In this document: piece after piece, positions 1 through 3,844 of the stretch
Layout: the number at the start of each line of letters is the position of its first letter
Position numbering within the stretch: the stretch's first letter is position 1
Assembly (NCBI GenBank): GCA_050249295.1
Contig: JBFWQT010000003.1
Location: 1 to 49,558, forward strand
Direction: 5' to 3'
Length of the DNA: 49,558 nt
Source: Planctomycetota bacterium
GTDB taxonomy: Bacteria; Planctomycetota; UBA8742; SKZP01
Notes under the pieces: model-generated
The model's database searches: none
Seen by the model: the letters and a program-made list of their open reading frames with translations, nothing else
Told to the model about the DNA's origin: nothing
Position numbers and translations under genes: made by a program

Positions 1-88
1 GCTTGCCGAGGGTGGCCTGCACGCCACCGGGGTCGATTTCCTTGTACTGGCGGCGCAGGTCGGCCAGCACGTCCTGTACGGTTCTCAT
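1..88 (-). CDS. N-terminus (partial, runs off left edge) of a probable rhodanese-domain MoeB/MoeZ-type E1-like sulfur-carrier adenylyltransferase
   Basis: Not in the ORF track. Manual translation from ATG at 88 gives MRTVQDVLADLRRQYKEIDPGGVQATLGK..., resembling the N-terminal helix of rhodanese-MoeB fusions. Lies directly downstream of MoaD/ThiS and JAMM genes. Only 29 codons visible. Confidence 0.55.
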   Translation of the reverse strand, partial: MRTVQDVLADLRRQYKEIDPGGVQATLGK

Positions 89-224: not shown

Positions 225-533
225 TCAGTTCGTTGCGCCGCCGGCGATCGCCGGCACGATGCTCAGCACGTCACCATTCTTGACCGGCGTGGTCAGGCCG
301 TCGAGCGTGCGGATGTCGTCCTGGTTGAGGTACACGTTGACGAATCGGCGCAGTTCGCCGCTGTCGCTGTAGAGCCGTTCGCGCAGGCCGCTGGCGCGCT
401 CGCCGAGGTTGGTGAGCACGTCGCCGACGGTGTTGCCGGGGAGTTGCACCTCGGCCTGGCCCTGCGTCAGCGGGCGCAGCGGCGTGGGGATGCGGACGGT
501 GGTGACGTTCGGGTTGGTGGTGGTCGTCGTCAT
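225..533 (-). CDS. MoaD/ThiS/CysO-family ubiquitin-like sulfur carrier with C-terminal extension (…IAGG-ATN)
   Basis: Motifs VRIPTPLR, TVGDVL, RRFVNVYLNQDDIRTLDGLTT, GDVLSIVPAIAGG. ATG at 533 preceded by AGGAG, so the ORF-track start at 623 is too long. Confidence 0.93.
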   Translation of the reverse strand: MTTTTTNPNVTTVRIPTPLRPLTQGQAEVQLPGNTVGDVLTNLGERASGLRERLYSDSGELRRFVNVYLNQDDIRTLDGLTTPVKNGDVLSIVPAIAGGATN

Positions 534-666: not shown

Positions 667-1122
667 TCACTCGGTCACGCGTTCGGGCGCGATACATCGC
701 TCCTCCGCGAACGCGGCGTTGCGCAGCACCCACGAGTTCCACGTTCCGGCCCGGCCCTTCGCGATCTGCAGGATCACGTACGACCAGCTCTCGGCGTCCA
801 CGTTGCCCCACACCTCCTCGGCCCGCGCGCGATCGGTCTCGCTGGGCCGCGACGGGTGGTCGGGGTGGGTGTGGTAGACGCCGATCACCTCGAGGCCCTG
901 CGCCGCGGCGTCGGTTTCAATCTGCAGGTATTGCTGCGGGTCGAGAATGTAGCGGTCGTGTGCGCGCTCGGTGTTGAGGTTGGCGGTCGCGCGGATCTGC
1001 TCGACGATGCGCGCGCCGTCGGCGGTGGTGCGCCCGACGAGGAGGCCGCAGACCTCATGCGGGTAGCCGGCCTCGCCGTGGCGTTGCATCTGCGCGATCT
1101 GGTCGTCGGTGATGATCAGCAT
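667..1122 (-). CDS. M67 family (JAMM/Mov34/MPN+) metallopeptidase, Mec/QbsD-like
   Basis: YPHEVCG glutamate and complete JAMM motif HTH-x7-S-x2-D (HTHPDHPSRPSETD). Start set at MLIITDD (1122); the upstream GQGQ extension is translated microsatellite. Confidence 0.93.
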   Translation of the reverse strand: MLIITDDQIAQMQRHGEAGYPHEVCGLLVGRTTADGARIVEQIRATANLNTERAHDRYILDPQQYLQIETDAAAQGLEVIGVYHTHPDHPSRPSETDRARAEEVWGNVDAESWSYVILQIAKGRAGTWNSWVLRNAAFAEERCIAPERVTE

Positions 1123-1311: not shown

Positions 1312-1962
1312 TCAGCTCAGCTTCTTCTTGTTGAGGTAGAAGTCGAACTTCTCGTCCCAGTTCCCGGCCAGGCGGTTCTCGACATCGGCAGCCGTCTTCG
1401 GCGGCGGCACCACCACGTTCTCGCCGGGCTTCCAGTTCACGGGGCAGGCCACGCTGTGCTTGTCGGCGGTCTGCAGCGCATCCACCAGCCGCACCACCTC
1501 GTCCACGTTGCGGCCCACGTTCAGCGGGTAGTAGACGATCGCGCGCACGGTCTTCTTCGGGTCAATCACGAACAGCGCGCGAACGGTCACGGTGGCGCTC
1601 TCGCCGGGGTGCAGCATGCCGTAGAGGCGGGCCACGCTGCCGGGCGTGTCGGCGATCATCGGGTAGTTGATCTGCACATCGAGGATCTGCTTGAGGTTCT
1701 GCCGCCAGGCGAGGTGGCTGTGGATGCTGTCGATGCTCAGGCCGATCAGCTTCGTGTTGCGCTGGCCGAACTCGCTCTCGCGCTTCGCGAACTCGGTCAG
1801 CTCGGTGGAGCACACCGGCGTGAAGTCGGCGGGGTGCGAGAACAGCACCACCCACTTGTCGCCGGCCCACTCGTGGAAGCGCAATTCGCCGACCGTGGTC
1901 GGCGCCGTGAAGTCCGGCGCCTGGTCGCCGATGCGCGGCAGGGTCAATGCGGTATCGGTCAT
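1312..1962 (-). CDS. Peroxiredoxin, Prx6/TDXH-like subfamily
   Basis: FSHPADFTPVCSTE active site, YYPLNVGRNVDEVVR, C-terminal ACPVNWKPGE; AAGGAG RBS upstream. Confidence 0.95.
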   Translation of the reverse strand: MTDTALTLPRIGDQAPDFTAPTTVGELRFHEWAGDKWVVLFSHPADFTPVCSTELTEFAKRESEFGQRNTKLIGLSIDSIHSHLAWRQNLKQILDVQINYPMIADTPGSVARLYGMLHPGESATVTVRALFVIDPKKTVRAIVYYPLNVGRNVDEVVRLVDALQTADKHSVACPVNWKPGENVVVPPPKTAADVENRLAGNWDEKFDFYLNKKKLS

Positions 1963-2345
1963 GTCATCTCCTTGCGGGTCGTTGTGGTTGATGTGAACTG
2001 TGCGGAAGTCGGTGGCAGATGCTGACGCCGGTGCCGGACGATGCGACGCGCCATGGCGAGGATGCGTGGCGGATTCGACGAACGCGTGAGGGAGTGGCGA
2101 GAACGCCGACAGTCTCTGTGATCAGGAACGGCTTGCAGTGTGTGCCGATTCCGCCAGTCCTGCCGTCCTGTGTCCTGTCTCCGCCCGTCTCGATCGCGTG
2201 CACCGCACAACGCCCTCCGCCAATCGGCGGCAGTGGCGTCAGCAACAACAGGTGCAGGCGAGAGTCATCAACATCGTGCGGTGGCCTGTAGAGGCGCTTC
2301 AGATCAGAAGTAACGCAGGTGTCGCACGCGCAGAGGCACGCGACG
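1963..2345 (-). promoter_or_regulatory. Structured 5' leader / candidate cysteine-responsive attenuator
   Basis: 2228-2244 (last Cys codon, stop and following bases) is complementary to 2020-2036 at 15/17 positions. Inner stem 2067-2079/2144-2156. An alternative local hairpin lies right after the stop. Confidence 0.55.
2239..2274 (-). CDS. Putative cysteine-rich leader peptide MLMTLACTCCC
   Basis: Minus strand reads ATG TTG ATG ACT CTC GCC TGC ACC TGT TGT TGC TGA. Four Cys in the last five codons, in the 5' leader of a sulfur-relay operon. Confidence 0.7.
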   Translation of the reverse strand: MLMTLACTCCC

Positions 2346-2351
2346 GCCCGT

Positions 2352-2379
2352 GGTGTACCTTGCCGCTGTTCGCTGTCAA
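2352..2379 (-). promoter_or_regulatory. Candidate sigma70-type promoter TTGACA-N16-TACACC for the leader/prx operon
   Basis: Perfect -35 TTGACA (2379-2374) and weak -10 TACACC (2357-2352) on the minus strand, about 80 nt upstream of the leader ORF. Confidence 0.45.
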
Positions 2380-2482
2380 CCAGGCAATGCGGAAAACGAT
2401 CAATCGTCGAATCCCCGAACCCGGCCGCGGGTGGTCCGTTGAAGGTTCCGGACAACTGGCTAACCACCCCTCCATATCCAAC

Positions 2483-3844
2483 ATGCCACATCTGAAGCCC
2501 GCCCGCCCGATCCTCGCCTCCCTGCTGCTGGTCGGCGCGCTGCACATTCCGACCGCCACCGTCGTGGCCCAGCCGGGCCCGGCGACTGACCCGCAGCCCC
2601 CGGCCACCGATCCGCAGCCCCCGGCCACCGACCCCGCCGCCGCGTACGCCGCGAAGCTCGACGCCGCCGCCGAGAAGGGGCGCGACTACCTGCTCTCGCT
2701 CTATGGCAAGGATCCGCGCCAGGGCGGATGGGGCCCCGACATGCCGTTCGTCGGTTACAGCGGCCTCGCGCTCAACGGTCTGCTGCGCGGCCGCAAGCCG
2801 GTGTCGGTGAGCGACGAGCGCGTGAAGAAGACGCTCGACAAGCTGATCAGCCAGCAGCAGTTCGACGGCGCGTGGGTCTCGCCGCAGCGTGGCGAGGCGG
2901 TCTACGAGACGTCGGTGATTCTCCGCGCGCTGGTGGCCGCGGCGCAGGCCGACAAGGAGTTTGCCGCGCGCGAGGACGTGCTGTCCGCGATCCGCAAGGG
3001 CCGCGACTACCTGCTGCTCGCGCAGGTGGATGAGCACCCCGAGGTCGACAAGGACGGCAAGGCGATCGAGGGCAAGGTGGATTCGCCCGACGCCGAGGGT
3101 GGCGCGAACTACGGCGGCGTGGGCTACGGTCGCGGCACGCAAGGCACCACGCCGTCGGCCAACATGAGCAGCACCGCGATGGCGATGGAGGCGGTGGACT
3201 CGACGACGGCCGTGATCGGCGAGGACGACAAGCTGAAGGAAGCGCGCAAGAAGCTGCAGAACTTCCTGCGTCACTGCCACAACCTGGCCGAATACAACGG
3301 CAAGCCCTACAACACCGAAGCGACCGACACGCCGCAGGGCAAGGTCGTGCCCGGCAACGACGGCGGCGCCGTGTACGCGCCCGGCCAGTCGAACGCCGGC
3401 ACCACCGAGGGCGAAGGCGGCGTGCGCGTGCTGCGCAGCTACGGCTCGGTGACGTACGCGCTGCTGCAGCTCTATCACATCTCGGGCATCGTCGATCGCA
3501 ACGACCTGCGCATCCAGAAGGCGATGGAGTGGATCACGCGCTCCGAGAACTTCGTCTTCACGTATCACCCCGGCCTGAACCAGGACGACCGCAACAGCCA
3601 GTTTGCCGGCCACTACTACTACCTCTACACCGCGGCCCACACGCTGAGCATGCTGGCCGGCAAGGCCACGCTCGAGGACAGCCGCGGCGAGGAACACAAC
3701 TGGAGCAAGTCGATCGGCGACGTGCTGCTCGGCCTGCAGCAGGCCAACGGCGCGTGGAGCAACCAGAAGAACTCCGCGTACTGGGAGAACGCGCCGATCA
3801 TCGCCACGTCGTACGCCCTGGTCGCGCTCGGCTACCTGCGCTGA
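2483..3844 (+). CDS. Secreted prenyltransferase/squalene-cyclase-repeat (alpha/alpha-toroid) protein
   Basis: Signal peptide MPHLKPARPILASLLLVGAL…AQ, ATDPQPP repeats, QW-like motifs (LISQQQFDGAW, LLGLQQANGAW), DGGAVYAPG, SYGSVTYA, HYYYLY. Confidence 0.8.
   Translation: MPHLKPARPILASLLLVGALHIPTATVVAQPGPATDPQPPATDPQPPATDPAAAYAAKLDAAAEKGRDYLLSLYGKDPRQGGWGPDMPFVGYSGLALNGLLRGRKPVSVSDERVKKTLDKLISQQQFDGAWVSPQRGEAVYETSVILRALVAAAQADKEFAAREDVLSAIRKGRDYLLLAQVDEHPEVDKDGKAIEGKVDSPDAEGGANYGGVGYGRGTQGTTPSANMSSTAMAMEAVDSTTAVIGEDDKLKEARKKLQNFLRHCHNLAEYNGKPYNTEATDTPQGKVVPGNDGGAVYAPGQSNAGTTEGEGGVRVLRSYGSVTYALLQLYHISGIVDRNDLRIQKAMEWITRSENFVFTYHPGLNQDDRNSQFAGHYYYLYTAAHTLSMLAGKATLEDSRGEEHNWSKSIGDVLLGLQQANGAWSNQKNSAYWENAPIIATSYALVALGYLR

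Follow-up and report, generated by a model that had tools for sequence, protein, structure and literature searches.

The window considered here is a stretch of 49,558 nucleotides (nt) from a Planctomycetota genome (GCA_050249295.1, contig JBFWQT010000003.1). Near its start, a very short open reading frame (ORF) that ends in a run of cysteine codons lies ahead of a peroxiredoxin gene (prx) and a set of genes for sulfur transfer. This candidate leader ORF is found on the minus strand at 2239..2274 and has 11 codons and a stop, encoding MLMTLACTCCC. Its DNA, read from 2274 to 2239, is ATG TTG ATG ACT CTC GCC TGC ACC TGT TGT TGC TGA, as an earlier note on this DNA had described it. Cysteine takes four of the five final codons (TGC at 2256-2254, TGT at 2250-2248, TGT at 2247-2245 and TGC at 2244-2242), two of the four being TGT, and the TGA stop is at 2241-2239. 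From stop to stop, the frame is 19 codons long and offers in-frame start codons at positions -11 (ATG), -10 (TTG) and -9 (ATG). The ORF lies inside a 520-nt gap between prx (1312..1962, minus strand) and a divergent plus-strand gene from 2483, on the strand of the prx operon, and 276 nt separate its stop from the prx start. Two DNA sequencing runs contain this stretch with no difference, and a look for RNA runs with this DNA found none listed. The gap is non-coding, because the codon-position GC bias of prx (0.61/0.41/0.95) is absent from it (0.64/0.58/0.65). A long open frame across the gap (2491..1967) was rejected as a gene, as it has no codon bias and is open by chance.

The genes downstream are those that the earlier note had claimed. 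The first after the leader is prx, a 1-Cys peroxiredoxin (PF00578, PF10417, NF009668 with 268 bits), with the Shine-Dalgarno sequence AAGGAG at 1968..1973. Then follow, all on the minus strand, a JAMM/Mec-type metalloprotease (667..1122; Prok-JAB PF14464, E 1.2e-22; 2kcq_A, E 3.2e-22), which shares 46-54% identity with the JAMM proteins encoded after the relatives' ORFs described below, a CysO-like sulfur carrier of the ThiS/MoaD fold (225..533; PF02597; 3dwg_C, E 3.7e-21), whose best solved relative is the CysO of Mycobacterium tuberculosis (3dwg_C), and the start of a fourth gene (1..88). The latter is cut by the contig end after 29 codons, has no family match and is typed as MoeZ/MoeB by its position; its remainder was not found in the assembly. 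In L062, L032 and L036, which are homologous clusters, the gene after the carrier encodes an E1 of the MoeZ type that includes a rhodanese domain, and a gene for a cysteine synthase (CysM) comes next. In the window genome, the cysM homologue sits on a separate contig (C43), and no cysE reached the cut-off in this 78.5% complete genome. Clusters of CysO-like carrier, JAMM and cysteine synthase occur across the phylum.

With a Gly-Gly carrier nearest to CysO, a JAMM protease and a MoeZ start at the locus, and CysM on C43, the predicted enzyme activities identify the operon as the Mec/CysO/MoeZ/CysM thiocarboxylate route to cysteine, of the M. tuberculosis type. The earlier note had called it a sulfur-relay operon; the locus is better read as a cysteine-synthesis route, which makes a leader with cysteine codons more apt than "sulfur relay" implies. 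The ORF would be the first cistron, as it precedes prx, JAMM, the CysO-like gene and the MoeZ start on the same strand, with spacing that suggests co-transcription.

The ORF is unusual in its genome. TGT is atypical there, as had been noticed earlier, since in 1661 long frames with high GC at third codon positions (GC3), only 549 of the 7173 Cys codons (7.7%) are TGT. Among 40,000 dinucleotide shuffles of the 520-nt region, none yielded a start-bearing ORF of at most 40 codons with at least four Cys in its last five; three consecutive Cys appeared in 0.2% and four Cys within six codons in 0.045%. When the 7.2-Mb assembly is read in its six frames, at least four Cys among the last five codons are seen in 24 stop-terminated frames. 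A looser rule for the Cys end gives 69 frames, of which 62 overlap long high-GC3 frames and one is the leader ORF in its gap. Just two of the six other non-overlapping frames (C7, C13) have a start codon before the Cys run. The leader ORF was the sole intergenic, start-bearing polycysteine ORF found ahead of sulfur genes in the assembly.

The strongest evidence comes from relatives. The earlier note had set beforehand that its proposal should fall if orthologous operons had no Cys-rich short ORF upstream, and the proposal withstood this test. The JAMM protein was searched against all 30 genomes of the class and found in 19 relatives, and in 17 of these 19 a start-bearing polycysteine ORF stands directly upstream of the JAMM-led operon. 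These ORFs came to light through a CysM-anchored search of the class relatives, which gave JAMM-cysM pairs. In the family f5, 16 of the 17 JAMM-bearing genomes, the 16 coming from four genera, carry an ORF of 11-12 codons, located 45-55 nt before JAMM-cysM. The encoded patterns are M..CCCR, M..CLCCR and M..CLCCL, each followed by the stop, and the peptides are MTNRAAMCCCR, MTTCAAVCCCR, MKSFAAMCCCR, MITRFAVVCCCR, MFMCPSNCCCR, MFMRPSNCCCR, MHMRLNDCCCR, MTMRVNSCLCCR, MSMTINSCLCCR, MSMTLNSCLCCR and MSMFMNSCLCCL. In G016, a member of family f3, an ORF of 18-20 codons, M(R)MFTSIAMACCCMCAASVV and a stop, lies 116 nt before JAMM-CysO-MoeZ, which is the gene order of the window. Its DNA (ATG CGT ATG ... 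GCC TGT TGT TGC ATG TGC ... TAG) encodes MRMFTSIAMACCCMCAASVV, shares xCC TGT TGT TGC in frame with the window ORF, and is directly preceded by TTGATT-16-TACACT. All of these ORFs are polycysteine ORFs in the sense of at least two consecutive Cys in a C-terminal tract: C-T-C-C-C-stop in the window, CCC or CLCC in the 16, and CCCMC in G016. The window peptide MLMTLACTCCC resembles the family in length, in its M-x-M start and in the Cys run at the stop, and its ORF does so in the use of TGT and in lying ahead of the JAMM operon.

We therefore consider it very likely that the ORFs of the relatives form a genuine family of cysteine-sensing leaders. The window ORF is probably a leader peptide gene with the same function, belonging at least by kind to this family of 11-20-codon polycysteine ORFs ahead of the JAMM(Mec)-led cysteine-synthesis operons of the class. 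The sensing role of the ORFs is well supported; their translation, ribosome stalling and a response to cysteine are inferred.

The two remaining JAMM-bearing relatives differ. No Cys-run ORF was found before JAMM in G006, and the CCCCLC frame of G008 lacks a canonical start codon. This frame (locus L118, ...WRPGCCCCLCFSSSLPRC and a stop), at about 80 nt before JAMM, overlaps the JAMM start, and its Cys run is preceded by none of ATG, GTG and TTG. It could represent either a decayed leader or a variant that starts in an unusual way. In family f5 (L043 and like loci), the CysO-like gene is apart from JAMM-cysM, directly before a homoserine dehydrogenase gene, and has no Cys-run ORF before it.

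The leaders of the relatives have a common anatomy. All 16 f5 leaders show TTGNNN, a spacer of 16 nt (17 in one) and TAnnnT, and a strict consensus scan calls the promoter in two of the four loci tested. Because the -10 element ends 6-10 nt before the ATG, the promoter geometry implies that the f5 mRNAs would be leaderless, or nearly so. The gene after the ORF has no Shine-Dalgarno sequence. The leader RNAs fold with a mean z of -3.1, 13 of the 16 being matched by at most 4% of shuffles. The duplex between ORF and spacer beats shuffled spacers in all 16 leaders compared (15 distinct f5 leaders and G016; z -1.1 to -3.9, p ≤0.05 in 10). For each subfamily, the consensus fold is one nested hairpin, with the ORF as 5' arm and a 3' arm that extends up to and including the JAMM AUG. 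A small GC hairpin begins at or just past the ORF stop in these folds, and many f5 leaders have a U-rich tract just past the inner hairpin. Compensatory changes occur at 2 of 27, 0 of 31 and 3 of 18 pairs in the three subfamilies, and a covariance model built from one subfamily recognizes the remaining ones (E 4e-5 to 0.07). Rfam gave no match in four loci of the relatives, in L065 or in the window leader. In G016, a hairpin followed by UUUUUGUUUUUG was seen by eye. An antiterminator in this leader, in which GGUGGUG of the ORF would pair with CACCACC of the terminator, was dropped, as minimum-energy folds gave it no support.

A number of observations weigh against the leader interpretation, some of them in the relatives. 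The 16 f5 genomes carrying the ORF are kin, not independent cases. Outside the class, polycysteine ORFs were found at 0 of 29 CysO loci scanned and 0 of 9 JAMM loci. A joint MAFFT alignment of all 16 leaders gave no consensus structure, which is explained by the misregistration of the subfamilies in this alignment. When a 29-nt ribosome footprint was blocked on the Cys codons, in a crude model, the JAMM start region did not open consistently (0.19-0.64, as compared to 0.34-0.67 when free), despite the stable folds in which its AUG is paired. The strict terminator scan calls one of four f5 leaders and misses the G016 hairpin. In the window genome, no Cys-run ORF precedes cysK/M (C43, C620) or cysH (C133), hence there is no sign of a multi-operon set.

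Further points of this kind concern the window copy itself. Its best promoter-like site is TTGACA (2379-2374), a 16-nt spacer and TACACC (2357-2352) on the minus strand, spanning 2352..2379. With a matrix built from the promoters of 16 relatives, it scores 9.5, above the 99.99th percentile of the window (8.6) and below the relatives' own promoters (10.9-20.4). The TTGACA promoter candidate of the earlier note is thus the best promoter-like match on its strand, while the strict sigma-70 consensus scan of 1900..2600 calls neither a promoter nor an intrinsic terminator. The predicted transcription start, near 2345, is about 70 nt before the leader ORF, unlike the leaderless relatives; 78 nt separate the end of the site from the ATG, and no similar site is present at the distance of 6-10 nt. 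The ORF itself has no Shine-Dalgarno sequence. Shuffled spacers form a duplex with it that is just as good as that of the real spacer (z +0.52), and the whole 351-nt leader folds no better than its shuffles (z +1.47). Pairing of the ORF with the prx Shine-Dalgarno sequence varies with the assumed transcript ends (p 0.00-0.72) and is equalled by 10.6% of shuffled ORFs, and 73% of the start regions of other genes pair with the leader ORF at least as well as that of prx. The covariance models R1 and R2 give no match at 2195-2274 (E up to 10), so the window element is either a very divergent orthologue of the relatives' leaders or an independent invention. The window copy is atypical: not leaderless by prediction, separated from JAMM by prx, devoid of a terminator, ordinary in its ORF-spacer pairing, and missed by the covariance models.

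Further features of the window leader concern its RNA. A local hairpin (2195..2260, minus strand) has the ORF from codon 5 or 6 to the stop as its 5' arm, and the first 44 nt past the stop as its 3' arm, with the inner stem-loop CCGCC-GAUU-GGCGG at 2230-2217. It folds with -35.7 kcal/mol (z -2.92), a stability reached by 3 of 200 shuffles, and z is -2.13 when 100 nt are taken; it lacks the U-run that would follow an intrinsic terminator. When nt 13-41 of a transcript beginning at the AUG are blocked, the unpaired probability of the prx ribosome-binding site rises from 0.34 to 0.74. Over its distal 190 nt, the spacer is rich in C and poor in G; the part at 1975..2150 (minus strand), with C/G of 1.5-2.1 in 78-nt windows, is a candidate loading region for the termination factor Rho. 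The maximum C/G of 2.12 is reached by 0.47% of random windows of the genome, and the genome encodes a Rho homologue (E 8e-117, below the curated cut-off).

Upstream of the ORF, a second Cys-rich frame was seen on the minus strand at 2315-2338, where TGC CTC TGC GCG TGC GAC ACC TGC gives four Cys codons in eight, in a frame other than that of the leader ORF. It starts about 14 nt past the candidate -10, close to the usual start site of the relatives' leaderless ORFs, and has neither a start codon (GTC at 2344-2342) nor a nearby stop. It could be the remnant of an older leader ORF, or chance.

The atypical features of the window copy are taken up by an alternative in which the family is real in the relatives, and the window copy a relic or a chance look-alike. 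The operon would have been rearranged, by insertion of prx, lengthening of the spacer and a moved promoter, and control passed on, for example to a redox-responsive transcription factor. The missing leaderless geometry, detectable f5 homology, ORF-spacer complementarity, terminator and adjacency to a start codon all speak for it. Moreover, none of 23 loci of prx orthologues elsewhere (64-75% identity) has a leader, in that no Cys-rich ORF lies within 700 nt and no JAMM or CysO gene is nearby; prx, however, is the wrong anchor for such a search, because it is not part of the ancestral operon. Against a relic or chance speak the ORF, intact from its start codon through the four Cys codons, rare TGT among them, to its stop in a region otherwise without coding signal, and the shuffles, which never produced such an ORF. 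It lies on the strand of the operon, downstream of the best promoter-like site, has the in-frame xCC TGT TGT TGC and the operon order in common with G016, and a stable hairpin still begins inside it. We regard the relic explanation as unlikely, and prefer a functional leader in the window as well.

Two further alternatives question the leader peptide in the whole family. The conserved element could be an RNA structure alone, a hairpin or terminator acting autonomously or binding a factor, with an incidental reading frame. Indeed, every predicted fold has the UGUUGUUGU tract in base pairs. Of the 52 Cys codons in the f5 ORFs, which stem from kin genomes and are not 52 independent events, 50 are TGT, as compared to 15 of 57 in the JAMM and cysM genes next to them, and this bias could stem from pairing needs alone. 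But all 16 f5 ATGs are placed 6-10 nt past the -10 element, in frame with the Cys codons, and the stop follows one or two codons after these. The f5 ORFs differ in length by whole codons, and ahead of the Cys run any residue seems to be allowed, whereas the run itself, the Arg (or Leu) codon and the stop are kept. The frame is maintained in three sequence-divergent subfamilies, in G016 and in the window, all of which makes a purely structural element very improbable. An equally poor candidate is a functional Cys-rich micro-peptide, which might carry metal or persulfide or serve the JAMM/CysO machinery as a substrate, because in spite of the conserved C-terminal CCC(R) and the constant neighbourhood of JAMM, the Cys run alone is conserved in 11-12 residues with a variable N-terminus, the ends differ in the window and G016 (CCC-stop and CCCMCAASVV-stop), and codon choice and RNA pairing point to a role at the RNA or translation level.

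For the cysteine-sensing leaders, the following mechanism may be envisaged. The leader ORF would be translated first, and with scarce charged tRNA-Cys, the ribosome would stall on the Cys run. One tRNA-Cys(GCA) was found among the 61 tRNAs of the window genome, and as it is the sole one, the TGT codons would be read by wobble, following the general decoding rules for UGU. Such wobble reading could make the Cys run more sensitive to charging. The stalled ribosome would occupy the 5' arm of the hairpin, that is, the ORF itself, and keep the downstream RNA from adopting its off state, which would allow expression of the operon. When cysteine is ample, the ribosome would finish and leave, the hairpin would form, and expression would fall. 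In the relatives, the read-out may be a masking of the JAMM start codon or a termination at the U-rich tract past the hairpin; occlusion of the terminator 5' arm by the stalled ribosome explains their leaders equally well as masking of the start region. In the window, it may be Rho-dependent termination, or a long-range masking of the prx ribosome-binding site. Rho-dependent attenuation would be a reasonable alternative here, given the C-rich, G-poor spacer, the Rho homologue and the actinobacterial precedent described below.

Leaders of this kind have been described in other bacteria, and the precedent cited in the earlier note is real (bioRxiv 10.1101/834739; PMC1262725). In mycobacteria, leaderless polycysteine ORFs attenuate cysteine operons (Canestrari et al., bioRxiv 10.1101/834739). 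The model proposed there is that a ribosome stalled in the Cys tract prevents the pairing of this tract with the ribosome-binding region of the next gene, and an independent evolution of such ORFs at multiple loci is described. The folds predicted for the relatives are compatible with this model, which the footprint blocking described above did not confirm. Cys-run leader peptides have also been predicted upstream of cys/cbs operons in Mycobacterium, Propionibacterium acnes and Bifidobacterium longum, with Rho-dependent termination suggested as the read-out in Actinobacteria (Seliverstov et al. 2005, PMC1262725). Full-text literature searches found no paper on a polycysteine leader element in Planctomycetes, and the earlier note likewise knew of no such attenuator in a Planctomycetota-like genome or for a prx-led operon. 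One paper that names Planctomycetes (PMC4833913) has as its topic the distances between leader genes and structural genes.

The ORFs described here resemble mycobacterial Ms5788A/Rv0815A and Rv2334A (10.1101/834739) as unannotated short ORFs with a Cys run by the stop, which form the first cistron before cysteine-metabolism genes. Further similarities are the leaderless position, predicted for the relatives from promoter geometry, the stalling on Cys codons as the proposed sensor, and, in the predicted folds of the relatives, a stable leader duplex whose 5' arm is the ORF and which extends to where the next gene starts. They differ in lineage, and the likeness drawn here is one of architecture. 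They are also much shorter, with 11-12 codons as compared to 30 (90 nt) in Ms5788A, and 3-4 Cys codons as compared to up to eight. The operon is mec-cysM or mec-cysO-moeZ, and neither cysO nor cysM appears in the text of the mycobacterial study. Finally, the next gene in the relatives has no Shine-Dalgarno sequence, and for the window copy a leaderless transcript is improbable and the distance to prx is 276 nt. With the leaders of Seliverstov et al. 2005 (PMC1262725), the window copy shares the suggested Rho-dependent read-out; those leaders are predictions for other operons, in Actinobacteria only.

The principle is common to the classical amino-acid leader-peptide attenuators, trpL, hisL, pheL and, together with Rho, tnaC: in a short upstream ORF, the amino acid of the pathway itself is encoded several times in a row, and the position of the ribosome decides the fate of the RNA. 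In contrast to these, we see no clear pair of terminator and antiterminator, and the predicted leaderless ORFs of f5 have just 11-12 codons.

The present finding brings a known kind of regulator, the polycysteine leader ORF, to a new lineage and a new operon, in a form that is likewise new and very short. Its logic, for which demonstrations had come from mycobacteria alone and predictions from Actinobacteria alone, extends to a distant and little-studied lineage, and points to a regulator of the Mec/CysO/CysM pathway in these organisms. The compact, apparently leaderless ORFs, in three divergent subfamilies, offer a clean comparative and experimental system. An unannotated conserved element, absent from Rfam, thereby finds an explanation, and attention is drawn to mini-ORFs that are missed by gene callers. 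The window variant couples a peroxiredoxin to the same sensor, which hints at a joint control of thiol supply and peroxide defence.

Tentatively, the two forms can be joined in an evolutionary scenario, which we put forward as a possibility rather than as the expected outcome. The class would have evolved independently its leaderless 11-12-codon polycysteine sensors, gating Mec/CysO/CysM, and the window lineage would have rewired them, with a 5' leader and with prx and mec-cysO-moeZ as targets, so that tRNA-Cys charging would directly set the level of an antioxidant enzyme through a long C-rich spacer, by Rho-dependent or long-range RNA effects. If true, the rewired read-out would be unlike the start-codon masking of the relatives and of mycobacteria.

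Searches with other anchors give an idea of how far the element extends. The CysO search across the phylum had a match in 113 of 301 genomes, and Cys-rich frames at the 29 CysO loci scanned were discarded as parts of coding sequences, which was verified for L036 and L043. A search for loci related to JAMM gave one metagenome locus and three genome loci, none of them close and none with the ORF. The order comprises just three genomes, and in the other two, G001 (54% complete) and G002 (83%), neither JAMM nor CysM was matched. The DNA of the window leader had no match in 40 relatives. The pattern TGYTGYTGYCGNTRR matched in the class about as often as its reversed control, and the eleven matches inspected, a small sample, were all in coding sequence and revealed no further polycysteine ORFs.

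Several minor features of the locus were also recorded. The divergent neighbour (2483-3844, plus strand) encodes a signal-peptide-like N-terminus and a proline-rich repeat (PATDPQP, three times); it has no Pfam match and a weak NCBIfam match to squalene-cyclase repeats (E 1.3e-6), far below the cut-off. In the interval between prx and JAMM, runs of the hexamers GCCCTT and AAGGGC face each other (1158-1181 and 1243-1278) and can form a long hairpin, and one frame of the first arm, on the operon strand, reads (Pro-Cys)n. This hexamer is a dispersed repeat of the whole genome, as indicated by 161 runs of at least three units across the assembly, many at contig ends. A long inverted repeat between the CysO-like gene and the next gene (118-223) can also form a hairpin. 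Matches to Rfam miRNAs at 118-223 and 1165-1283 were below threshold and set aside as chance matches to plain hairpins.

The CysO-like carrier of the window ends in AIAGG-ATN, with three residues past Gly-Gly; the carrier of L036 ends in AIAGG-LGSRSRQV, and that of L043 stops at GG. The window carrier would presumably need trimming before activation, by the neighbouring JAMM protease.

Peroxiredoxins 65-69% identical to that of the window adjoin CysO/CysM clusters in four other genomes (L044 and L046 in G292 and G234, L076 in G118, and contig C43 of G016, with L020 and L125), so that the linkage of 1-Cys peroxiredoxin to the thiocarboxylate pathway recurs. Two of the four are divergent from JAMM, one is convergent after cysM, and one follows directly after cysM on the same strand. 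In yeast, Urm1 and Ahp1 are reportedly linked.

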